A stretch of DNA of 62,786 nt, the filler included, from Basidiobolus ranarum (Eukaryota), in assembly GCA_040143965.1 (NCBI GenBank). It is 21 parts of 21 records of this genome, joined end to end, with 100 filler letters (N's around TTAATTAATTAA, not from the genome) between each part and the next. Parts side by side here need not be neighbours in the genome. Positions count along the whole stretch, not along the records: positions 36,002 to 38,893 come from JASJQH010002889.1; 20 more parts are not named here. One strand, given 5' to 3'. The translations under genes were made by a program, and so were the position numbers. Shown here in pieces: positions 14,926 to 62,786 of this stretch. Each line of letters begins with the position of its first letter. The stretch's first letter is position 1. Below the pieces are notes generated by a model, which saw only the letters and a list, made by a program, of their open reading frames with translations, was not told the origin of the DNA and searched no databases.

Positions 14926-15025
14926 NNNNNNNNNNNNNNNNNNNNNNNNNNNNNNNNNNNNNNNNNNNNTTAATTAATTAANNNNNNNNNNNNNNNNNNN
15001 NNNNNNNNNNNNNNNNNNNNNNNNN

Positions 15026-17035
15026 AGTCCAGTGAAGCCAGATTCTGGCAATAATCCGCGCCGTAACAAACAACCTAATCCAAGCCCAAGCAACACTTCA
15101 AGAAGTGGTAGCAGACCTAGTCCAGTGAGGCCAGATTCTGACAACAATCCGCGCCGTAACAAACAACCTAATCCAAGCCCAAGCAATACCTCTGGAAGTG
15201 GTGGCGAACCTAGTCGAGTGAAGCCAAATTCTGGCAACAACCCACGCCGTAACAAACAACCTAATCTAGGCCCAAGCAACACTTCAGGAAGCGGCGACAA
15301 TCCCAGTGTGGTGAAGCCAAGTTCTAACGATCCGCGCCGTAGCAATCGACCCAAGTCAAGCTCAAACGATACTTCAAGAAGCAATGAAAAGGTCAATACA
15401 GGAAAGTCTAGTTCTTACATTAAACCAGACCGCAGTAATCAATCCTATTCAAGCGCTCCAGAAAATGATAAGTCTAATCCAGAGAGACAAGTACCAGATA
15501 GCTCAAACCGTAGTAATCAATCAAAGCCATATTCAAAAGATACCTCTAAAAATGATGGTAACCCTGACTCAGGAAATGGTGATCAAACTGGAGCAAGTCC
15601 GCCGGTTCCTGGAAATGAACTCGAGCCTAGCTTTACTAATAAGCCAGGCTCAAATAGTAACCTGGACCGAAACAATCTACCAAAACCAAATGTCGATGAA
15701 GAACCTAGCAGAAATCTTAAAGGTTTGAATCTACCAAAAACCTATGGCCAGCCAAACGAGAATAATTTACCAGCCACATTTAATATCCTAGATGACATAT
15801 TTAGCACATTCGCTAGATTTTTGGATAGTAAAAATCGTCGCTCTCAACCGTCAGACTCTTCTAGACTTCTGAAACAGAATGAAATCCCTTCAACTCGTCC
15901 AACTCGTTCCGCTAGACGGAATGATGATAGAAAGTCCAACACAGATTCTGAAGAAGACTCAAATCCGTCAAAAACCGATGACCAACCAAATAGATATACG
16001 TCACTAGTCAAAATGAACATTCCAGATGTTATTTTCAGCACACTCGCTAGATTATTGGATAGTAAGGATCGTCGTTCTGAACCATCTGACTCTCCTAGCC
16101 TTTTGGAACAGAATGAAAGCTCTTCACCTCGTCCAACCCGTTCCGCTAGACGAAATGATGATGATAGAAGTTCCAATACAGATTTTGAAGAAGACTCAAA
16201 TCCGTCAAGAGCCTATGGCCAACTAAATAGGAATACTTCACCAATCATATTAAACGTTCCAAACGATTTGTTTAGCACATTTGCCAAATTTTTAAGTAGT
16301 AGATACTCTGATCCTCAAAAAGCTGTCCCTTCCAACGATAAAGACTTGAGCAAAAATCCTACAGCTGTTACGCCAGTGAGAGAAGAAAATATAGAAACGA
16401 ACAGCAGGCCCAGAGGATTAATACGTACCTTTGTAAAGAGTCTGATTCGTGATAGCAAGCTCAAAATACTTCAACAAAGAGCGAGGGAGAGGAAAATAAA
16501 ACAATTATTGAGAATCTTGGGGAATTCGCTTTCGCAAAGTCGATCAAGAAGAAATACCAAATCAATCTTTCCGAATTCTTCGAAAAATAGGCTTAGGAAG
16601 ATTCGTCAACTCTTGACACCAGAGAGAATCCAAGATCTCCGAAGATTTGCTCTGAATAATAGAGATACACTATCACATCTAGTCAAGAAACAAACTAAGA
16701 ATGAATACTTTCCTAATTTACCTAACTACGTTCTTAGAAATCGTAGGCTTTCAAATGTCATCAAGACGCGTAATAATGAGAATCGGTTTAAAACTGTAGG
16801 CCTCAATAAGCCTCGAGTTCCGATCTATACTTCATATTTGAGTGGCGAAGAAAATGAGCCTGAGGATAAAGAGTCAATTAATTTACAGGAAAGCCGTATC
16901 ACTGGATCCTTTGGCAGACTGTTGAGTAAGATCAGATCCTCTAATAATGAAAAACAACTAGATGCCGAAAATCAGGATGATGATGGAAATCAGCTTGATA
17001 GACAAGAATTACTTAATGCCCGCTCTTTACTTTGA
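15026..17035 (+). CDS. Low-complexity Ser/Asn/Pro/Arg-rich repeat protein (5'-truncated, >667 aa)
   Basis: 2-kb open frame with 31-aa tandem repeats (KPDSGNNPRRNKQPNPSPSNTS...) and a ~80-aa unit with an FST(F/L)A(R/K)(F/L)L core seen three times. CpG is retained. Confidence 0.85.
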   Translation, partial: SPVKPDSGNNPRRNKQPNPSPSNTSRSGSRPSPVRPDSDNNPRRNKQPNPSPSNTSGSGGEPSRVKPNSGNNPRRNKQPNLGPSNTSGSGDNPSVVKPSSNDPRRSNRPKSSSNDTSRSNEKVNTGKSSSYIKPDRSNQSYSSAPENDKSNPERQVPDSSNRSNQSKPYSKDTSKNDGNPDSGNGDQTGASPPVPGNELEPSFTNKPGSNSNLDRNNLPKPNVDEEPSRNLKGLNLPKTYGQPNENNLPATFNILDDIFSTFARFLDSKNRRSQPSDSSRLLKQNEIPSTRPTRSARRNDDRKSNTDSEEDSNPSKTDDQPNRYTSLVKMNIPDVIFSTLARLLDSKDRRSEPSDSPSLLEQNESSSPRPTRSARRNDDDRSSNTDFEEDSNPSRAYGQLNRNTSPIILNVPNDLFSTFAKFLSSRYSDPQKAVPSNDKDLSKNPTAVTPVREENIETNSRPRGLIRTFVKSLIRDSKLKILQQRARERKIKQLLRILGNSLSQSRSRRNTKSIFPNSSKNRLRKIRQLLTPERIQDLRRFALNNRDTLSHLVKKQTKNEYFPNLPNYVLRNRRLSNVIKTRNNENRFKTVGLNKPRVPIYTSYLSGEENEPEDKESINLQESRITGSFGRLLSKIRSSNNEKQLDAENQDDDGNQLDRQELLNARSLL

Positions 17036-18139: not shown

Positions 18140-19749
18140 TTCTATATCAAATGCATGTTAAAGCTGCATTTTGAATGGTGAGCTAGCTGAGAAGATCTAT
18201 ATGGACCAGCCAGATGGTTTTCTGGACCCAGAGAACTCTAAAAAAGTTTGCAGACTCTGGAAAACACTCTATAGCTTAAAAATTTTGAAAACATTCTAAG
18301 GCTAGAAACAATCTCTGAGAGCTTGGAATAGCAAGCTATTTCTTTTAAAAACACTAATTTCAAAAGAGTATTGCTGATTATAGTATCTACTTCAGGCCAG
18401 ATAAGGCAAACCCAGTTTTATTAGCCTTTTATGTAGATGACCTTATTATAGCAACCAATGACTTAATGACTTTGGAGAGAACCAAGTCCAGCATATATGC
18501 CAAATTCAAAATGACTGATTTAGGTGAATTGATGTACTATCTTGGAATCCAGATTAAGATAGATAGAACTACCAAAGAAATAGCTTTAAGCCAGTCTAAT
18601 TATACTAAAGAAGTTTGAAATACAAGAATGTTATCCAGTATCTGCCTCAATGAAGACAAATCTTCACTTAACCAACAATGGCTCAAATTAGATGCTCTTG
18701 GATTCAAATGAAAGCCACAAATTTCCTCATCAATCTATAGTTGGTAGTTTGATATATATCATGGCTGGAACATGGCCAGATATTGCATATTCTGTGGGAG
18801 TTATGTGCCAATATTTTCAAAATTATGGATCTGATAAAATTATAGCAGTTAAGTGATCTTTAGATATTTGAAAGGTACTGTGGATCTATACTTAACATAC
18901 ACATATTCTGGATAAAACATCAATCTGATGAGATATTCAGATGCAAATTGGGGAAGAGATATTGAAGACAGGAGATCTATAACAGAATACTTGTTTCTTT
19001 GCTGTAATGGAGTTATTTCTTGGAATTCAAAGAAACAACCTACCATGGCACTTTCAACAACAGAAGCAGAATACATGGCTGCCTGTGAAGCAAAAAAAGA
19101 AGTAAGCTGGTTAAGAAAACTCTTAACAGATTTAGGTTATTCTCAAAATTTACCAACTATTATATTTTAAGATAATCCAAGTTATATCAAATTAGCTAAA
19201 AATCCCACATTTCATAAAAGAAGCAAACATATAGATGTTAAGCATCACTTGATTAGAGAGACTTTAGGGAATAAGTTTATAGACTCAACTTATTGTTCTA
19301 CAGAAGATATGATAGCTGATATATAAACCAAATCATTAGATAGACAGAAATTTGAGAAATTTGGACCTTTGTTAGGATTAGATTATATGACTATTTAGTT
19401 GAGAGAGTGTGTTGAAATTAGCATTGCCTAAACACCTGTATAGTCATATAGAGCTTAGTACTTAGTTATCTCATATTTCACTAAGATACTATCCATTATT
19501 TTCAATTGGAATTTACTTAGAATATTGACACCAACTTGGAAGTTCTCACAAATATAGATCTTTTAAACTTGTGCTAGAAGCCCCAAACTTTGCACACATG
19601 TTCCTGGGACCTTCCTTAACACATTCTACACGTTAGTTTGCTTACACCTTGACAAAACTACAAATATCAACTGAATACTCAATAAGTGAAAACCACCAAT
19701 TCCTCTAATTCTGCAAACCACTTCCAACAGGCTCCCAAATACTTTAACA
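18140..19749 (+). mobile_element. Copia family A 3' half: decayed RT-RNase H, PPT (19401-19409) and complete 3' LTR-A (19410-19749)
   Basis: FYVDDL, YSDANWG, ALSTTEAEY and KHIDVKHH motifs; GAGAGAGTG then a TGTTG...TAACA LTR of 340 bp. Confidence 0.93.
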
Positions 19750-20923: not shown

Positions 20924-21199
20924 NNNNNNNNNNNNNNNNNNNNNNNNNNNNNNNNNNNNNNNNNNNNTTAATTAATTAANNNNNNNNNNNNNNNNNNNNN
21001 NNNNNNNNNNNNNNNNNNNNNNNCCAGACCCCCCCCACCCCCCCCCACCCCCCCCACGCCATTCTTGCATGGAATGTTAGGGCAATGTTATATTTTGTTG
21101 TTGGGAGATAATTTTTGTACAATTCATGGGATAGGTTTTTTTAAAAGAGTGAGGATGTTAGTCAATGGGTTAAGTTTTGGTGTTGGGTTTAAACCTTTT

Positions 21200-24020: not shown

Positions 24021-25049
24021 TTTAGGGATACGAGTAGATCCACCAACGAGAACGATCTCGTGAACGTTAGCTTTGTCAATCTTGGAATCACGAAGAACCT
24101 TCTCAACAGGATCCATAGTAGAACGGAATAAATCTTGGCAAAGTTCCTCGAATCTGGCACGGGTCAAGGAGGTGTAGAAATCAACACCTTCGAATAGGGA
24201 GTCAATCTCGATAGAAGTTTGAGCGGCAGATGAAAGAGTTCTCTTGGCACGTTCGCAAGCAGTTCTGAGACGACGAAGAGCACGAGGATTGTTAGATAAA
24301 TCTTTCTTGTTCTTACGTTTAAACTCTTGGGCAAAGTGGTTAACCAGGCGGTTGTCAAAATCTTCTCCACCCAGGTGAGTATCACCGGCAGTGGCCTTGA
24401 CTTCGAAAATGCCATCCTCAATGGTTAAGAGAGAAACATCAAAGGTGCCACCACCAAGGTCGAAGATGAGAACATTTTTCTCTCCACTGGATTTTTGATC
24501 AAGACCGTAGGCAATGGCAGCGGCGGTGGGTTCATTAATGATACGGAGAATATTCATACCAGCAATAGCACCAGCATCCTTAGTGGCTTGACGTTGAGAG
24601 TCATTAAAGTATGCTGGAACAGTGACAACAGCGTTCTTGACTTCAGCACCGAGGTAAGCTTCGGCAGTCTCTTTCATCTTTAGCAAAATCATGGAAGAGA
24701 TTTCTTCAGGAGTGAAGGTTTTAGTTTCTCCCTTGTATTCAACTTGGATTAAAGGTTTGGTATCTTTGTCGATAACCTTGAAAGGCCAGTGTTTCATATC
24801 AGATTGTACTTCAGAATCGTTGAAACGGCGGCCGATGAGGCGCTTGGCATCGAAGACACTGTTGGTGGGGTTCATAGCGACTTGATTTTTGGCGGCATCA
24901 CCGATGAGACGCTCCGAGTCATTGAAGGCAACATAGGATGGGGTGGTTCTATTACCTTGGTCGTTGGCAATGATCTCAACACGATCATTTTGCCATACGC
25001 CAACACAAGAGTAAGTGGTACCCAAATCAATTCCGACAGCTTTAGACAT
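24021..25049 (-). CDS. HSP70: Cytosolic Hsp70 (SSA-type), N-terminal ATPase domain, 3'-truncated
   Basis: [41 protein letters not shown] and [11 protein letters not shown] signatures. Confidence 0.99.
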
Positions 25050-36001: not shown

Positions 36002-38611
36002 AAGATTTCTTCCCCAGTCTGCATCACTGTAGCCTGCAAAATATGATGCATCAGCAGTTGCAGAGTATTCCAGAACTAGATCTACAGTTCCTCTCAAATA
36101 ACTGAATATTTGCTTTATTGCAGTTTGATGCTCAGATCCTGCTTTTTTGAGATATTGGCTGACAGTTCCCATGGCCACAGCAATATCTAAAAGTGTTCCA
36201 ACCATTGTATAAATTAAACTACCTACCATGGATTGATCAGGGAACTCCTGGCTTTGAATGGAGTCATTCTGGCCCAAATTGGATATACGTCTATATACTT
36301 GGCTTTGGTAGTAGAAAGCGCATCAAATGGTTGCTTCTTACTGTTCCAAGTCATGGTTCATTACCATTGAGAAAACTGTATTCAAATGTTCATCTTTGAT
36401 AATCAAGGTTTCTTCCTCAGTCTGAATCACTTTAGCCTTCAAAATCTTGTGCAAAAGCAGTGCCAGATCATTGCAGAACTTGATTTGCAGAGCCTCTCAA
36501 ATACCTGAATATTAGTTTTAGTGCAGTACTGAGCACAGTTCCTAGACTACTAACATGTTCTACCATTGTATACATTGAACACCCCACCAGGGATTGATAA
36601 GGGAACTACTGGCTTTGATTTGAGTCATTTTGAGCCAAATCTGATGAAAATATGATTAATTTCACATGGGAGTCCATTGGTGTTGATACAGGCTTGTTTT
36701 TCTCAATGTTGAAGCATTTTAGGATGTCTAGGATGTATCTAGACTGATTAAGCCTTAATTTCTGAATAGGTTTATCTCTGTTCATCTAAAATTTAGGCAA
36801 ATAACTTAATTCTCCTATATCAGTCTTCTGAAATTGGTTTGATAGTTTTTTTTGCCTGATTAAGTGCTTATTAAATAAATGTGGCTATGATCAGGTCATC
36901 CACATATAGTGGCAATATAAGGAGCCTAATTCCAGTAGTTTTGAAGCCAATACTTTGATCTGCTGTACATTTTTAGAATTCCAGTGATTCCAAATGGGTA
37001 CCTATCTTGTTATATCATGCCCTGAGTGGTTGCTTGACTCCATATAGCAATTTTTGCTATATACAGTCCATATCAGGAGTTTTTGGGTCAACATCTCCAT
37101 CTGGTTGCTTCATATTAATATCTTCTTCTACATTTACGTTCAGAAAGGCACTTTTTACATCCATTTGATTTGAATCAAAGTTGTGGATGGCTGGGAGTGC
37201 CAGGATTGATCTTCTGGAGGTATACTAAGCAACTGCAGCAAAAGTCTCATTGAAATCGCCTCCTGGAGTCTAGGACTAGCCTTTTACAACTAATCTTGCT
37301 TTGCATCCTCCTATGATTCCACTGGCTTGGTTTTAGACTCTGTAGAACCATATGCAAACTGTTTGCTTTCTTGCCCATGGTAGAGGCTTTAAAACCCACA
37401 TTTCATGGTCCCTGGCTGATTTCTCTTTCTTGATGATGTTCTACATCCTTGATTATTCTTTGATGTAATGGGGACAGGAATCTTGGCCCAATAGAGCTCA
37501 AATAGAGCTGGAATCCTTTCTGAAACTTCCCAAATAGTTCTGCTTGTGTTTTCTGGTTCAAGAACTGTGCTTTGAGGAGAAAAATTTGCTTTTTCATTAA
37601 CAATCACATCTCTGCAATAAATTAACTTCTGATTTTGGGTATCTGACTGTTGCACAGTTTAAATTGAGCTTGCCATCTCCACTATGGCTTTATTAGCTTG
37701 TTCTGCCACTCCATTTAGGTGTGGAGCATAAGGTACAGTAGTTTGTTGCATATTTCCTTGTTTAGAACAAAAACTAGCAAAGCATTTAGAGCAGTATACA
37801 TTGCCATTGGCACTCTTTGATAGCCTTATTTGTTATGCTGAACCATTTGGTACCAATTTGTTCAGTGCTTGAATGTAGATAAGTCTTCATATTTTGATTT
37901 AAGAGAGAATTTCCAATTATATCTTATTTTATCATCAATGAACTTCTTAAAGTACTTTTTGCCACCTGATGAGAACAATGTTTGTGGGCCCACAGAGTTA
38001 AGAAAAAATCACGGCAAAATTCCAAGTGTTTTTGCTCTCTCCAGAGCTTGAAAATAACTCTGTGTTATGTTTCTATATATGCAACCTTGACACAGATCCA
38101 ATTAGGTCATACTTTCAACTTCCAAGCCTGAAACAAGCTGATTTTTGAACATTTAAGTCAGTTTTGTTTCCAATATAATCTAAACTTCTATGCCATGTTT
38201 GAGAGCTTAGTTCACTGGTCTGATCAAGCTTGCTTGCACAGAATGCAATTCATTGATTTCCGGCTTGTGTAAGTTTTGAGTTTTGATAGCAGTAGCTCAT
38301 TTGGTTCTCTTCCGATCTATGAGAATATACCTAGCCTTGCTAAACAGCATATTTGGTCCTTGAGTTGTTTCTTGGCCTACTGAGAGTATATTTTTGGCTA
38401 TACTTGGTACATAGAGTACAACATCCAATTTTGCAAATGGTGCAACTAAATTGTTTTCTTAACTGAGCACCACTGTGCCCATACCAGCTACATCTGGTGC
38501 ATAGTCATCACTCAAGTTGACTTTCCTTATTTAGATGGGCTTTAAGGCGGAAAACCAACCTCCCTTGTTTGGCAAATGTTGAGAAGCTTCTGAATCAATG
38601 AGCCATGTTTC
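36002..38611 (-). mobile_element. Decayed copia pol (protease-integrase-RT-start of RNase H) with a short internal duplication
   Basis: WLIDSEASQH, WHRSL, TVPYAPHLNGVAE, QMDVKSAFLN, LYVDDL and GYSDADWG motifs in copia order. Confidence 0.93.
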
Positions 38612-38893
38612 TGTTGAAATTATTTAGGGAGAAATATTGGTCTGGCCAGGATTTGAACCTGGGACCTCCTTCACCCTAGCAAGGTCCTCTAACCACTGAG
38701 CTACCAGACCTTGTATGCTATGCCTATATTGCTAGGGAACCTTAACTTAGTCTGTCAATGTATGGTACCTTGGCATTTCAGTTATACAAGCAACTGATTG
38801 GCCTTAGACTTTGTGTTCAGATGCAGCCACCATACTCCATATTTTCCTCTTTGGGAATTACTGCTTGTACCACAAGTCACCAGACTTTCAACA
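38612..38893 (-). mobile_element. 282-bp LTR-like unit with 8-bp terminal inverted repeats, carrying a tRNA-like gene
   Basis: TGTTGAAA at 38612 and TTTCAACA ending at 38893; internal sequence unlike LTR-A or LTR-B; lies directly upstream of the copia protease motif. Confidence 0.6.
38638..38710 (-). tRNA. tRNA-like gene or pseudo-tRNA with anticodon AGG (Pro)
   Basis: GGTCTGG/CCAGACC acceptor stem, A box TAGCTCAGTGG, T arm CCAGG-TTCAAAT-CCTGG; single mismatches in the D stem and anticodon stem; 73 nt. Confidence 0.75.
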
Positions 38894-40488: not shown

Positions 40489-41883
40489 TGTTGAGTTTAT
40501 TTTCTTTATCATATTTGTTATCTCTATCTTTGTACACCTAACTATTTCATATATCACATATAAGTTATTTAACATTACTGAGTCAAATATCACTTAGCTG
40601 AAATTTGGAACATATATTATATATGTATATATGTGAATAATGTGAGAATTAGCAATTCCATATTAGAAATCTCAAAAAGTTATTCCCAACCCCACTTTTC
40701 TAAAGTTCCTCCTAGCAGCCCATATTTTCCCAATAGGTTATGAGCCCCATGTTCTAACCTTTACAGCATGACAGAAACCACTGCTACCACTTTTATCAAC
40801 TTAAGTGTTGAAAAGCTTTATGGAGAAAATTTCAATTTCTGGAAGTTCAAGATGCAATTCAGGCTGGAAGACAGGGAACTTTGGGATGTAGTCTGAGGAG
40901 ATGAAAAGTAACCTTCTGACCCTTCTTTGCTGGAAGCTTACATCAAAAGAGACAAGAAAGCCTTTAATGTCATTTGTCAAAGTTTGAAAGATTCACTGCT
41001 TGTAAATATTCAATAAGCAAAGACTTTGCATCAAGCTTGGACTTTATTGGAAGAGTGTTATGAAGCTAAGAGTCCTGCTAATAGACTCTTTCTCAGACAA
41101 AAATTCTTCAATATAAAGAAGGAAAAGTCTGAAAGCATGGTTACTCCTATTGCAGTGTGAGATCTTTAGCAAAACAACTGGAAAATATTGGTGCAATTTT
41201 ACAGCAAGAAGATGTCATTATGACTCTTCTAAGTACCCTACCATAACAGTATTCAAACTTGGTCACAGCTTTGGAAGCAAGATCTGACAAGTTGTCTCTC
41301 AAGTTGGTGGTGGCAAGACTAATGGATCAACACCTCAGAAGTAAGAATTTGGAAAAAGAATCTGAGGAAGTAGCTCTTTTTGGAGCTGGAAAATGTATCA
41401 TTGGCAAGTGCAAAGGTTACAAAAGAAGAAAACCAGGTTTAGGCTATGGTTGTAACAAACCAGGACACCAGTTAAAAGTTTGCAAATCAAGAAATTATAA
41501 CAAAAATGATAAGTCAGAACAAGCACATCAGGTTTCAACCAAAGGGGAAGTTTCATTCATTTCTGCACTATCAGTGACCTCAGAAAAGACTGTAGGTTGT
41601 TGTATATTGATTCTGGTGCCTCTCAATGTTTCTCTAATCAAAAAAACTGGTTTAAGACACTCAAAACTGACATAAACAAGAAGGTTTATATGGGAGATGA
41701 CTGGCCACTAGAAGCTCTGGGAGTGGGAGAAATTGAAGTGGATCTTGGGGACATCTCTGGGGACATGTGTTTGACACTGAAAAACGTGCTATATGTGCCT
41801 GGGATAGCAAAAAATTTGTTATCAGTGAGTAAAGCAACATCTGAGGGATATTGCTTTAATTTTGATCAAAATGGCTGTACAAT
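40489..41883 (+). mobile_element. Copia family B 5' end: LTR (40489-40735, internally deleted), PBS GGTTATGAGCCC (40736-40747) and decayed gag-protease (ATG 40768)
   Basis: EKLYGENFNFWKFKM gag, degenerate CCHC (CNKPGHQLKVC), YIDSGASQ protease, LKNVLYVPG.AKNLLSVS. Confidence 0.95.
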
Positions 41884-41983
41884 NNNNNNNNNNNNNNNNN
41901 NNNNNNNNNNNNNNNNNNNNNNNNNNNTTAATTAATTAANNNNNNNNNNNNNNNNNNNNNNNNNNNNNNNNNNNNNNNNNNNN

Positions 41984-44060
41984 TTTCCTTTGAATTGATG
42001 GTAGGATGTTCACTCGAATGAGTCTTCTCAGTCTCCGTTGATTTCTCATGGTGCTCGCTGGAACTGGACTTCTCAGTTTCCTTTGACTTCACGGTAGGAT
42101 GTTCACTGGAATGAGTCTTCTCAGTCTCCGTTGATTTCTCATGGTGCTCGCTGGAACTGGACTTCTCACGGTGTTCGCTCGAACTGGGCTTCTCGGTTTC
42201 CTTTGACTTCACGGTAGGATGTTCGCTGGAATGAGTCTTCTCACTCTCCATTGACTTCTCATGGTGATCGCTGGAGCTGGGCTTCTCAGTTTTAATCGAT
42301 TTCGCTGGTTGTTGAGTGGAACTTGTTTCAATTTGCGGTTGAGATGACTGTGGCGGTGGTGGTGGAGGCGGAGGTAGTGCGTTTGCACAACTTGGTTTTC
42401 CCTCGAAAGGAACACATACATAGCCACTACCACAGGAGGAAGTTTCCTCTCGACCATTTACGCATTTAATCATTATGGGCGAAACATTTTCTTGCAAGCA
42501 ACCTGGAACACACTTTTTGGAATGTGGCTTCTCAGTTGTCTTGGATTCCTGGTTATGTACACTTGATTTGGGCTTCTCAGTTGCTTCTGTTTTCGGATGT
42601 TGGCTGGTTGATTTTGTATCGATTTGAGGTTGTGATGACTGTGGTGGCTGTAATGGCGGTGGAGCCAGGGTATTGGCACAAGTAGGTTTTCCCTCAAACA
42701 AGACACAAACCATGCCACTGCCGCAAGATGATGTTTCGGTGTGGCCATTTGTGCATTTGACCATAATGGGCGAAACATTTTCTTGCAAGCAACCTGGTTT
42801 GCACTGGTTGGGCGCAGAACTTGCTTGAATCGTCTTTGAAACGGAACTTTTAGCTTCCTTTGAATCATTGGAATTAGACTTCGGTTCTTGAGTACTCGTG
42901 TGAGAAGGTTTAGATTGAATGTGGGTTTTTTCACTTTCGCCTTTGGATTCGTTTTTGTTCTTACTATACGATATGGTATTTGAAGCACTGTTTTGTAAGG
43001 TTGGTTTAGCCAATGATGATGGCAAACTTTTTCTTGATCCAGGGCTTGGGTTTTGGACGCTTTCAAGGAAGATCTGGCACTCCACTGAGGATACTCTCGT
43101 ATCTAAGTTGTATTTATGCAACGTCCAGTCGTAGACCCATTGTCTATGAAGAACATCTACGCAGACGGCTTGTTTAGCGCACCACGTTGGTACCATTTTC
43201 CCGTTTTCGCACCACAAATATTCTCCTGTCGTCCAAGGGTCGACGCATTCGATTTGCTTTGTGCATTCGTTTTCTGTAACTACTTTCTTGACCTCTTTGC
43301 CCACGGAAATTGTAGTCTTCTCGATCTTCGTACTTGTAATCTCATGATTTTTCCAAATACTTCCCGGGACACACATGTTCAGTATTTCACTGCATTCCAT
43401 ATTCGGTCGACAGGGGTATATTTGATATCCTGCTTGTGAGTCAGCACAATAAAGAGCTGCAGTACCGTTGTAACAACGCCCTGTACCTAACACACATTCA
43501 CCGCCTCCGTCTATAGGAGGCATATTTATAGGTCTGCATCCTTCACCTGGCTGGCATTCTCCATACGGTCCACATGGTAGAAGGCCGGCGACGTTATCAT
43601 GACAGAATGCTACATTATGTTTGTCGTAACAGTAATTCTGGAATGTTTTCGAATCACAGCTTTGGGTGACGACTTTTGAACTTTCTTTCGTTTTGTAGAT
43701 GACTTCAGTTTTTGTAGCGGTCGTTTTTCCAGTGTGATAGTAGGTTTGTTTCCAACGACGGTTACAGAAAACCTTGGTGTCGCTTTGTTGCTGACATTGA
43801 TACTGTCCATTTTTGTTAGGACATTTTTCTATTACCCACTGTCCGTTGATGCACTTCTTTGCTTCGGTATTGCTGATGCAAGTAACTTTAGCAGAATTAC
43901 AGTGACCGGATAATGTTTCAACTGGTTGAAGTGTGGCTACTGAAGTAAAACGATTGGCGCTATATATGCTACCAATGTTTTCTCCGCTAGGGTTTTGTGC
44001 ATGAACAACCCTTACGGTTTTTGTTAAGAACAACGAGATCAGCAGTATTTTGAGAAACAT
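41984..44060 (-). CDS. Secreted Cys-rich protein with several CBM19-like modules and a Ser/Glu/His/Lys-rich repeat tail (3'-truncated)
   Basis: Signal peptide MFLKILLISLFLT; about six C..C..CxNG..C..C modules, two nearly identical (PGCLQENVSPIM.KC.NG..ETSSCGSG.VC); SSSEHHEKS repeats. Confidence 0.85.
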
Positions 44061-44637
44061 ATTGCTGATTGCTCGATATTTTGCTTTTGGCAGATTTGCT
44101 TGTTCATATAGGAATTATTTTAGCGCTGTAAAATGGAAATTCTCCCATCTGCGGAACTAGTAGATTGGCAGAATGCATTCCAGCGTTTGATTGATAATTT
44201 GGTTCAATATTAACCCATGGTTATTTAGGTTGCAGGTAAGTATTGGTATATCTAATCTGGATTTTCCGTAATTGATTCTCCCTGAATAAACCATGGTATC
44301 GTGAAAGGCGTAGCCTAGACAAAATCGATCCACTTTTATTTGTTATATCTCCAATACTTGCGTATGGTGCGTTGGGGTTTCCTAACTATTCTTTATCTGT
44401 TGATTTCTAATCGTGATCGGTAGTTGAATTCTATTTGCCGTTACTAGTATTGGTTTCAATAGCTTTATTCTTCACTACTGCTTTATTATTAAGCCAAAAT
44501 CCTTATTAAATTAGGAAGAGATGTGGCCCCGAAGTGCAGATCTGGCAAATTGTAAGAAGTATATCAGGTTATAAAAGTTCAAATTTCAAATTGCTGTTGG
44601 AATAAGTTTGTTCTAACTACCTTGGGTTAGTATGGCT

Positions 44638-44971: not shown

Positions 44972-45545
44972 CATGTTCCTGGGACCTTCCTTAACATATT
45001 CTACACGTTAGTTTGCTTACATCTTGACAAAACTATAAATGTTAACTTTCTACTCAATAAATCAATAAGTGAAAACCACCAATTCCTCTAATTCTCCAAA
45101 CCACTTCCAACAGGCTCCCAAATACTATAACACCATCTAACATTTCAGAAGAGGGAAAAGCTCTATGAATTTGAGAAGTAGGCCTTACCAAGAGAGCAAG
45201 TTTGAGGCTCCTAAATTGTTAAAGTATTTGGGAGCCTGTTGGAAGTGGTTTGGAGAATTAGAGAAATTGGTGATTTTCACTTATTGATCTATTGAGTAGA
45301 AAGGTGTCATTCATAGTTTTGACATGATGTAAGCAAGCTAGCATTTAGAATGTGTTAAGGAAGGTCCCAGAAACGTGTGTGCAAAGTTTGGGGCTTCTGG
45401 CACAAGTTTAAAAAATCTATACATCTGAGAACTTCTAAGTAAACTCTGATTGAGAATAATGGCTGATATCTTAGTGAAGAATTGGATAACTAAATACTAG
45501 GCTATATATGACCATATTGGTGTTTAGGCAATGCTAATATGAACA
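44972..45545. mobile_element. Two LTR-A copies tail-to-tail: 3' part on + (44972-45132) and full 5' LTR on - (45545-45217) with degenerate PBS and gag stub
   Basis: Both match 19410-19749; 45133-45216 resembles 60080-60157. Confidence 0.88.
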
Positions 45546-59904: not shown

Positions 59905-60498
59905 TTTAACATTAAGACAAATTGTGTTAAAGGCACTTTGTTCTTTTTTAACCTGGAGTAAAACTTTGGTTTCAGATAGTTTTGCATTGTTTTCTTCTCC
60001 TACAACAGTGTCCCAGAGTCCTTTTTCTTGCAGCAGCATTTTCATTTTAATTTTCCAAACTTGATAATTGGTTCCATCCAATTTTTCAGAAGAAAGAAAA
60101 GTTCCATAAATTTGAGAAGAAGACATTACAGAGAGTGCAAACTTGCGGCTCATAACCTGTTAAAGTATGTGGGAGCCTGTTGGAAGTGGTTTGGAGAATT
60201 AGAGGAATTGGTGGTTTTCACTTATTGAGTAGAAAGTTGACATTTATAGTTTTGTCAAGATGTAAACAAACCAACATGTAGAATATGTTAAGGAAGGTCC
60301 CAGGAACATGTGTGCAAAGTTTGGGGCTTCTAGCACAAGTTTGAAAAAATCTATATATCGGAGAACTTCTTAGTTGGTAAAAATATTCTAAGTAAATTCC
60401 GATTGAGAATAATTGATAATATCTTAGTGAATTATAAGATAACTAAGTACTAAACTAAATATGACTATATAGGTGTTTAGGCAATGCTAATTTCAACA
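59905..60498 (-). mobile_element. Copia family A 5' end: LTR (60498-60158), PBS GGTTATGAGCC and open gag start
   Basis: TGTTG...TAACA LTR; EKLDGTNYQVWKIKMKMLLQEKGLW gag; flanked by CACTA ORF2. Confidence 0.95.
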
Positions 60499-62786
60499 GT
60501 AACTGGGTACACCACTTGGAAGAGTGGTAAATTTGGAAGTTTATCCAACACCTGGCACCTCTCAACAAGCCAAAACACCAGCAAATAAAACTCACGGCTC
60601 TCCAACCTCAACTGGTACTTTTCAAAGTGTTGAAATTAGCCCCAAAGTTAAAGCCACACAAACAGCCACATAAACACTACAAAGCACCCTCAGTAGTGTC
60701 ACACTACAAGGATGTACCAAAATAGTCAAAGTGCTTAAGGAGTATTTTCAAAAGTATGAAGGTAAAAATGCAGTGCAAGTATGCAGAAAGGGGCTTCAGA
60801 GGAAGAGCATTCAACTTGACATTCAGTCTGGTATTGACCGTGCAGATATCTGGGAAGAACTTTATACAGAGTGGCACAATACTGCAGGGTATCCAACAGA
60901 TAGCTGGAAGAATGTTGATTCAGCAACATTAATACAAGGTAGGCTTTGATGGAGATATTGATACAAACTTGTGTTGGGTATGAAGGTCTCTATAAAAATA
61001 TTCAGGAGAATATATTAGAGAGACTGGGGATTTCAAAGGTGACTAATTAGCATTCAAGTGGTAATTGTGTAAAATTTGAGTTACATTTTTTGCACATGTG
61101 TTAATCCATAGTTCTCTGAGATTGTAGCCAATTGTGTATAACTATTTTGCAAGATCTTGAAATTTCACTCCCAAAACTGAAAAAATTGATTAAAATCAAA
61201 TCTGATTTGATAATATTATGATTGTAAGTAAATGGTCAATCACAAATGGATTAAAATTATGATGGTTTTCCTACAATAACAATCCTCAAACTTCCGCTAG
61301 GGGATAGTATTAATATATCATGACTCTTATACCATTCAGAAGGAGGAAGATTTAAGTTTTATCCATCAAGTATAGCAGTAATACCATCAGCTTTACAGTG
61401 AGTGCTTTGGTATTGGATCAATGATCTATATGGATGATTTCATCAAAACTTTAAGATGGGGAATCAATGGTATGTAAGCCAAATATAAAAAATATTCACC
61501 TGATTCAGTGATTGCCACATGTGTGCAAACAGTACATGACTTCAGGTTTATCAGATCACCAGTGAAAGCCAAACAACCATTTGGACATGAAGGTAGTTTA
61601 ATTACTGAAGGAATATAGGTCATATGATTGACAAGTGTTTTCCACTTGTACCAAGTCTGTGGCAAGCAACAGCTGCCAATCAACTGTGATCCCTAACAGA
61701 AATTTGAAGATTGTTATCATAGGAAAATTGTCACAATTTTAATCCATTTGGGATTGACTGTTTACTTGCCATCATAAACTTGTCAAGTTAGATTTGATTT
61801 TAATCAATGTTTCAGTTTAGGAGCGAAATTTCAAGATCTCGCAAAATAGTTGCACATGCTTGGCTACAATCTCAGGAAACTATGGATCAACACATGTGCA
61901 AAAAATGTAACTCAAATTTTGTACAATTACCACTTGAGTGCTAATTTGTCACCTTTGCAATCCCTAGTCTTGTTAATATATTCTCCTGAATATTTTATAG
62001 AGTTCTTCCTACCCAACACAAGTTTGTATCAGGATCTCCATCAAAGCCCACCATTGTATTAACATTGCTGAATCAACATTCTTCCAGCTATCTGGTGGAT
62101 ACCCTGTGATATTGTGCCACTCTGTATTAAGTTCTTCCCAGATATTGGCACGGTCAACACCAGACTGAATGTCAAGTTGAATGTTATTCTTCTGAAGCCA
62201 CTTTCTGCATACTTGCACTGCATTTTTCCCTTCATACTTTTGAAAATACTCCTCAAGCACTTTGACTATTTTTGTATGTCCTTGTAGTGTGTCACTACTG
62301 AGGGTGTTTTGTGGTGTTTGTGTGGCTTTTTGCTAGCCTTTTCCTTTGGGACTAATTTTAACACTTTGAAAAGTACTAGTTGAAGTTGCAGAGCTGTGAG
62401 TTTTATTTGCTGGTGTTTTGGCTTGTTGAGAGGTGCCAGGTGTTGGGTAAACTTCTGAATTAAGCACTCTTCCAACTGGTGTACCCAGTTCCATGGTGAA
62501 ATTAAGCTTTTTTGCCAGCATATCTGACTCTGGAATTGCAGATCTTTGAAATGGTGTGAAGAATTTGGTAAGTGGGACAGTAGAGCCTAAACTCACAGTC
62601 TCCTTTGCTTTTCCCTGGGGTTTACTAACTTCCTGCTCCTTGGGTACTGCTTTAGCTGCATTTCTTTCATTTCCAAGTCAATAGTTGCATACATTTTTGA
62701 GATGTTTCATGAATAGGCCCAAACTAGCCCAATTGCCATTTACTTGCAAAAACCCAGGATAAGCCACAAGAAATAAGTCAAGAAAC
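60499..62786. mobile_element. CACTA/CMC-like nest: ORF2 3' part plus end A (ends 61302), host transposase fragment (~61375-61690, -), second end A (61691) plus ORF2 (-)
   Basis: Two end A termini flank KLPSCPNGCLAFTGDL..YIPLIPHLK. Confidence 0.9.

Follow-up and report, generated by a model that had tools for sequence, protein, structure and literature searches.

How did a tRNA-like sequence come to lie, between inverted ends, beside a copia relic in Basidiobolus ranarum? A first-pass annotation of the window (the whole stretch of DNA analyzed here, 62,786 nt in length) had singled out a 282-bp unit as a candidate solo LTR or TRIM driven by its own Pol III promoter. The window consists of 21 contigs of 2882–2907 bp each, with N44-TTAATTAATTAA-N44 spacers between them, and the unit occupies one end of contig 36002–38893. 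Its sense strand is the minus strand of the window. The features of the unit and its immediate flank are as follows.

38612..38893, minus strand: whole 282-bp unit, probably one LTR (solo or 3′) of a Helenus-type element, judged by its 8-bp inverted ends, plan, length, and flush contig end
38711..38893, minus strand: U3-like 5′ part of the probable LTR, 183 nt, starting TGTTGAAAGTC
38638..38710, minus strand: tRNA-like part, anticodon AGG, whose A and B boxes presumably make up an internal Pol III promoter; recognized by ARAGORN, Rfam, and box patterns
38612..38637, minus strand: tail of the probable LTR, 26 nt, ATATTTCTCCCTAAATAATTTCAACA, with CA at its end and without a T4 run
38607..38611, minus strand: GAAAC (minus strand), adjoining the 3′ end of the probable LTR; if the element is like fungal Helenus, a candidate for one half of a 5-bp target-site duplication whose partner would lie past the contig end

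A Unit with Inverted Ends at a Contig Terminus

The ends of the unit had been described as perfectly inverted, and they are: TGTTGAAA at 38612–38619 and TTTCAACA at 38886–38893 are complementary at eight of eight positions, and the ninth base no longer pairs. The outer end is flush with the contig, as was also claimed, since position 38893 is the final base of contig 36002–38893. Across all contigs, an 8-mer that ends in CA has its reverse complement 100–400 bp upstream at 26 of 3742 positions (0.7%), and any 8-mer has such an inverted partner at 100–400 bp at 521 of 51987 positions (1.0%). The word TGTTGAAA is itself enriched in the window, where it has 18 sites on both strands against 6.26 expected, a count reached in none of 100 dinucleotide shuffles. 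At least three of these 18 sites are LTR termini, located at 19410, at 60498, and in the unit as interpreted here.

Searches with the unit returned little beyond its tRNA-like part. The 183-nt 5′ part resembles none of the other contigs of the window and matches no Pfam family in three frames at E ≤ 1. A second copy of the 282-bp unit was not found in the 21 contigs of the window (61 kb), a sample far too small to judge copy number. An exact 22-mer of the unit had no match in a scan of metagenome contigs, and BLAST of the unit against a phage collection yielded a single irrelevant 60-nt match of tRNA type.

The tRNA-Like Sequence

ARAGORN recovers the 73-nt cloverleaf that the first-pass annotation had placed at 38710–38638, and calls it a tRNA-Pro with anticodon AGG on the minus strand. 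It is the only tRNA found by ARAGORN in the whole window, and further tRNA-like sequence is absent from the 21 contigs. The Rfam tRNA model matches 38710–38638 with 55.2 bits (E = 3.5e-11; gathering score 29), and in that alignment the D stem and the anticodon stem hold one nonstandard pair each. Energetically, the cloverleaf is less favorable than the minimum-energy fold of the sequence (−23.7 vs. −29.0 kcal/mol). Among Rfam families the unit matches tRNA only, and there is no 5S match anywhere in the window.

The internal promoter elements are intact, in agreement with the earlier description, with an A-box pattern from unit position 191 and a B-box pattern from position 235. The end of the tRNA is 26 nt from the terminus of the unit, the distance originally given, and the tRNA-sense strand of the unit does lack any run of four or more T. 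The absence of T4 within the unit is not significant, as 39% of shuffles are equally without one; the nearest downstream T4 is at 38554, which is 84 nt past the 3′ end of the tRNA and 58 nt past the probable LTR. A 6-nt direct repeat, TCCCTA, flanks the tRNA-like part. We considered it as a mark of secondary insertion and rejected it as being at chance level, with an estimated ∼0.8 matches expected in the search space.

CpG Loss and the Context of the Window

The unit had been said to lack CpG, and it contains none where 12.8 are expected. Contig 36002–38893 as a whole has 8 CpG against 104.9 expected, an observed/expected ratio of 0.076. Across the window, this ratio is 0.01–0.12 in nine repeat-rich contigs and 0.27–0.87 in the other twelve, with GpC at about its normal level, and most of the contigs with a ratio above 0.4 carry long open reading frames. 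Repeat families are common to several of the contigs, in keeping with the assumption that all contigs derive from a single genome. The CpG pattern is as expected from methylation and deamination confined to transposons. Because it has lost all of its CpG sites, like the surrounding repeats, this copy of the unit is dead.

Other contigs of the window have contents of their own. A fragment of Hsp70 at 24021–25049 (minus strand) has 97% identity to Basidiobolus ranarum and 94–96% identity to several paralogues of B. meristosporus; among the matches listed, no other normal-length fungal Hsp70 exceeds 91% identity to this fragment. This similarity places the source near Basidiobolus, and a Bem1-like gene likewise indicates a fungus. 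Long open frames at 14978–17035 (plus strand) and 41928–44114 (minus strand) correspond to highly repetitive Ser/Pro/Asn-rich and Cys-rich proteins that look secreted and are unrelated to the unit. One contig opens with a long C-rich run, CCAGACCCCCCCCACCCCCCCCCACCCCCC, at 21024–21053. A match to Rfam MIR477 at 45089–45259 (plus strand) scores 42.6 bits where the gathering score is 65, and is probably due to chance or of hairpin type.

The Copia Relic and the Inner Boundary of the Unit

The remainder of the contig is copia sequence.

36002..38605, minus strand: decayed Ty1/copia pol (protease, integrase, reverse transcriptase, RNase H), read as the host of the insertion, recognized by Pfam and tblastn

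On the minus-strand reading, with stops written as X, Pfam detects Pol_BBD from 38605 (E = 3.6e-16) and RVT_2 further on (E = 4.7e-31), and stops are present in every frame. The copia protease domain begins at 38605, 7 nt from the unit and on the same strand. When 77 copia proteins were compared with the contig by tblastn, 45 aligned above 38300, with alignments starting at 38455–38623, and 43 of these 45 start at 38605–38623. None of the 77 proteins matches 38624–38893 in tblastn, despite having about 240–420 upstream residues each. Among 43 copia relatives, 38 have a CCHC knuckle 28–80 residues ahead of the protease Trp. The unit has no Pfam match to gag or to a knuckle at E ≤ 1, and a 43-sequence profile of the gag C-terminus scores −2.2 and −2.5 bits on the 183-nt 5′ part, below many of 300 shuffled controls. 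Copia homology ends at the inner edge of the unit, within a few codons.

The first-pass annotation had cautioned that the TCAACA at this edge could be copia coding sequence. The codons TCA ACA (Ser Thr) do fall inside tblastn alignments over an S-x-E-x-W motif, and these alignments, which start at 38617–38623, leave the inner boundary uncertain by about 6–18 nt and count weakly against a sharp edge. A BLASTP match to protein P0032 runs ungapped through the unit, and a Cys and a His of the unit face two of the four zinc-knuckle ligands in this alignment, a weak correspondence. The codons at the contig end (C-x-K-S-G...) were considered as a decayed zinc knuckle and rejected, as neither Pfam nor the gag profile supports them.

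Searches with translated sequence likewise center on the protease. A 198-residue read-through gave 398 phmmer matches at E ≤ 0.001, and nearly all of the best 150 of these 398 align to the protease part. Among the phmmer matches listed, P0002 and P0139 align only to the translated tRNA-like repeat, and P0057 was discarded as an unrelated low-complexity repeat protein. A word-index protein search with the protease region produced 41 candidates, none of which was significant.

The only visible flank, at the 3′ end of the unit (38611 downward), is copia protease and not a primer-binding site, so that this copy, read in the direction of its tRNA, cannot be a 5′ LTR. At the opposite end of the relic, within RNase H (36002–36645), the host copia contains a diverged tandem duplication (36002–36140 and 36405–36543 at 78%; 36201–36284 and 36562–36645 at 82%).

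LTRs of Resident Copia Elements

The start of the unit had been compared to that of a copia family, here family A, for which two LTR copies are present in the window.

60158..60498, minus strand: 5′ LTR of copia family A, TGTTGAAA...CTTTAACA, 341 nt, followed by the primer-binding site GGTTATGAGCCG (60157–60146) and then gag
19410..19749, plus strand: second LTR copy of family A, with the purine-rich stretch GAGAGAGTG just before it

The comparison was well founded, as both LTR copies begin TGTTGAAA and one has a primer-binding site and gag after it. The two copies align from TGTTGAAA to CTTTAACA, and similarity breaks down exactly outside TGTTGAAA and AACA. That TGTTGAAA is the 5′ end of a resident copia LTR is proven. 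A second copia family in the window has an LTR at 40489–40735, followed by GGTTATGAGCCC. In both families, a primer-binding site GGTTATGAGCC(G/C) comes right after the LTR, at 60146–60157 (minus strand) and 40736–40747 (plus strand), respectively.

The unit and the family A LTR have an identical 8-nt 5′ terminus, TGTTGAAA, and an ...AACA 3′ terminus, and both show near-total loss of CpG. They differ in that the family A LTR is 341 nt in length, has no tRNA-like sequence, and leads into a primer-binding site and gag. In a three-way alignment, the unit and the two family A LTRs are alike in nothing but their termini, and the same holds when the unit is compared with both copia LTR families of the window, with which it has termini only in common. 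The copias of B. ranarum carry the terminus and the type of primer-binding site that Kojima links to Helenus of fungi (PMC10886601).

Comparison with Helenus and Cassandra

The first-pass annotation had referred to the literature on Cassandra and on Helenus/Ajax elements, which exists and is apt. Kalendar and colleagues reportedly described Cassandra in 2008 as a TRIM whose LTRs contain 5S rRNA sequence. The account in PMC10886601 also presents Cassandra as a plant TRIM with 5S rRNA sequence in the LTRs. The unit is similar to Cassandra in having a fragment of a small-RNA gene with an internal Pol III promoter within what is probably an LTR. However, the insert of the unit is tRNA-like and not 5S, and Cassandra is of plant lineage.

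Helenus (TRIMp3) elements are TRIMs whose LTRs include a tRNA-like sequence (Kojima 2024, Biology 13:119, PMC10886601). In that account, there are 113 families in Pucciniales and a few in Agaricomycetes, target-site duplications are 5 bp, and full-length elements are 311–1263 bp, with two LTRs around a short noncoding internal portion. The LTRs of the rust-fungus (Pucciniales) families compared are 106–284 bp, with 5-bp target-site duplications (Table S1, PMC10886601). The consensus LTRs of fungal Helenus compared here mostly start with tgttga or tgttgg (a few with tgtc or tgta) and mostly end in ...aaca, and their plan consists of 30–210 nt of family-specific sequence, a sense tRNA-like sequence, and a tail that by eye is ∼15–60 nt (PMC10886601). 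Evidence is given for mobilization by copia, with a primer-binding site that pairs with the anticodon-loop half of tRNA-iMet (PMC10886601). Kojima proposes that Helenus arose by insertion of a SINE into the LTR of a TRIM (PMC10886601). In the rust-fungus genomes analyzed, Helenus copies are held responsible for the majority of genes predicted for the expanded tRNA types (Table 2, PMC10886601). The screen started from Repbase seeds and was extended to related genomes (PMC10886601), and for this reason, as far as the account describes it, early-diverging fungi were not systematically covered.

An LTR reading had been proposed for the unit, and it fits the anatomy: TG...CA ends enclose a sense tRNA-like sequence that is 26 nt from the 3′ end, as in Helenus LTRs. 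Like these, the unit starts with TGTTG..., has its tRNA-like sequence with A and B boxes near the 3′ end, and ends in ...AACA. Its plan on the minus strand, which reads TGTTGAAA, 183 nt, a 73-nt tRNA-like sequence, a 26-nt tail, and TTTCAACA, is that of Helenus; its length of 282 bp is within the rust-fungus range of 106–284 bp; and its tail is short and pyrimidine-rich. The anticodon and body of the tRNA-like sequence putatively mismatch any single isotype, again as in Helenus. In addition, the primer-binding site used by the proposed copia helpers, ggttatgagccc (anticodon-loop half of tRNA-iMet), is present in the copias of the window. Conversely, only a single LTR is visible for the unit, its 183-nt 5′ part is like no published family among those compared by eye, its tail is without the T4 run that by eye is found in many of the consensus LTRs compared, and its host, Basidiobolus, is outside Basidiomycota and outside the reported range of Helenus.

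Shared words give a similar picture. Of six words of the unit sought in the Helenus supplement, three are present and three are absent in the portions covered (PMC10886601). The 21-nt T-arm word GGTCCCAGGTTCAAATCCTGG is present in Helenus-4_CroRib and Helenus-16_CroRib (Cronartium), aatttcaaca is the 3′ end of Helenus-2_PTrit, and, in the same portions, the D-arm word of the unit is found in a wasp family only (PMC10886601). The tail of the unit resembles that of Helenus-4_PGr, a weak comparison made by eye (PMC10886601). By eye, the unit and the published Helenus LTRs compared are alike only in the tRNA-like part, at the termini, and over this weak stretch of tail. In the literature covered by our search, no Helenus-like element is reported from Basidiobolus.

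A scan of metagenome contigs with a degenerate 29-mer returned at least 123 loci. Among the matches listed, two loci, L035 and L108, are Helenus-like and have the same sequence; the remaining loci of the scan looked like ordinary, mostly GC-rich tRNA genes.

L035:427-545: 119-bp Helenus-like solo LTR, TGTTGGAT...TTTAACA, with a tRNA-like sequence (ARAGORN Tyr-GTA)

This solo LTR has a perfect 5-bp flanking duplication, GTTTC, and splits an open reading frame. The empty site reads through ...VMTTQLRF / NICKLDDSRL..., a motif that we take to be typical of fungal NACHT/NWD proteins. L035 shows the look of a verified Helenus-type solo LTR. In an alignment of the unit with L035, similarity is found in the tRNA-like part only.

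Weighing Alternative Origins

In our assessment, the unit is probably one LTR (solo or 3′) of a Helenus-type element that inserted into an older copia. A tRNA-bearing LTR is favored because the perfect 8-bp termini, with a frequency of 0.7–1% per position, equal the 5′ end of a resident copia LTR. It is unlikely that the unit is instead a tRNA-derived SINE or a tRNA retro-pseudogene in the linker between copia gag and protease, an origin under which the 183 nt would be decayed gag and coincidence would explain both the inverted 8-mers and the contig end flush with the unit. The position of the tRNA-like sequence, on the copia pol strand and just upstream of the protease, is consistent with such an origin, as are the tblastn alignments that enter the unit by up to 18 nt, the P0032 alignment that sets Cys and His against zinc-knuckle positions, the restriction of likeness with other elements to the tRNA-like part, and the single copy visible in 61 kb. 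Like a tRNA-derived SINE (SINE2), the unit also has a tRNA-like head with A and B boxes and a putative isotype that is not cleanly assignable. However, it has neither a body nor an A-rich or simple-repeat tail 3′ of that head, and TG...CA inverted ends lie around it. Marks of LINE-type insertion are absent: the 3′ end of the tRNA-like sequence is followed by a 26-nt nonrepetitive tail and, 7 nt on, by the copia protease domain. A signal of gag is missing from the unit, though a CCHC knuckle is present within 80 residues of the protease Trp in 38 of 43 relatives, and the sole flanking direct repeat, the 6-nt TCCCTA, is at chance level. Finally, it is unlikely that the inverted 8-mer (0.7–1%), its identity with the LTR terminus of a resident copia, and the flush contig end all arose by coincidence.

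A single visible LTR sets no size for the element, and the unit could belong to an autonomous or otherwise nonminiature retrotransposon with a tRNA-like insert in its LTR. One candidate is the host copia itself, minus its primer-binding site and gag, given that the probable LTR and the copia pol are in the same orientation and 7 nt apart; moreover, quite a few LTRs in Repbase contain tRNA-like pieces (Kojima, PMC10886601). This junction of LTR and protease, however, requires a deletion exactly from the end of the LTR to the start of the protease, where resident copias have the normal order of LTR, primer-binding site, and gag. The unit and the two copia LTR families of the window have only termini in common, and in the published account the tRNA-bearing LTR families of such architecture that are classed as Helenus are all below 1.3 kb (PMC10886601). 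We regard a larger element as quite unlikely. That the sequence is an ordinary functional tRNA-Pro(AGG) gene in repeat-rich DNA is very improbable. The cloverleaf match is full length and, at 55.2 bits, above the Rfam gathering score, and the A and B boxes are intact, but two stem pairs are nonstandard, the cloverleaf is less stable than the minimum-energy fold (−23.7 vs. −29.0 kcal/mol), CpG is at zero as in the decayed repeats nearby, there is no T4 terminator for 84 nt past the 3′ end, and the sequence is embedded in a dead copia.

On the preferred reading, that of a Helenus-type LTR, the unit is a probable new member of the Helenus kind; the kind is known and the host lineage is new. The position of the contig end may also be accounted for. 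Many contig ends of the assembly fall in repeats common to other contigs, and because of this a contig break at a repeat boundary is expected. The flush end would then be a break where similarity between repeat copies stops, for example between the two LTRs of one element. The pentamer GAAAC, found next to the unit, recurs at the end of contig 59905–62786, where we considered it as a duplication partner and dismissed it as coincidence; the sequence has stops in three phases, and nothing gag-like is seen by eye.

A Proposed Mode of Mobilization

The sequence itself shows the anatomy of the unit, its termini, its nesting in copia, and the terminus that it shares with resident copia LTRs. We infer for the unit the use of Pol III, nonautonomy, mobilization in trans, and a U3/R/U5 division. 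In this scheme, the first 183 nt would act as U3. The A and B boxes of the tRNA-like part would recruit RNA polymerase III, with transcription predicted to start at or near the 5′ end of the tRNA-like sequence. Because there is no T4 run inside the LTR, we propose that the transcript can read on past it, and it would go on to cover a primer-binding site, then a short internal region. A resident copia would provide reverse transcriptase and integrase in trans, and its integrase may recognize the same TGTTGAAA...AACA ends.

Implications

The value of the unit, represented by one dead copy, is that of a lead and not of a result. Tentatively, it may be the first sign that Basidiobolus, an early-diverging fungus outside Dikarya, hosts a miniature LTR family of Helenus type with Pol III promotion, served by copias that have the half-tRNA-iMet primer-binding site of the rust-fungus helpers. 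If so, either Helenus-type elements have a far longer history in fungi than the ∼130 My proposed for Pucciniales (PMC10886601) or tRNA-bearing LTRs arise repeatedly wherever this copia lineage lives. The tail without T4 would, if the reading is true, show passage of Pol III beyond the LTR.

LTRs that bear tRNA-like sequences inflate predictions of tRNA genes, and their recognition matters for the annotation of fungal genomes. With a family in Basidiobolus, the known hosts of Pol III-promoted LTRs would extend from Basidiomycota to an early-diverging fungal lineage. Such a family would also offer a second, independent fungal setting for judging whether SINEs or tRNAs are captured repeatedly into copia-type LTRs.
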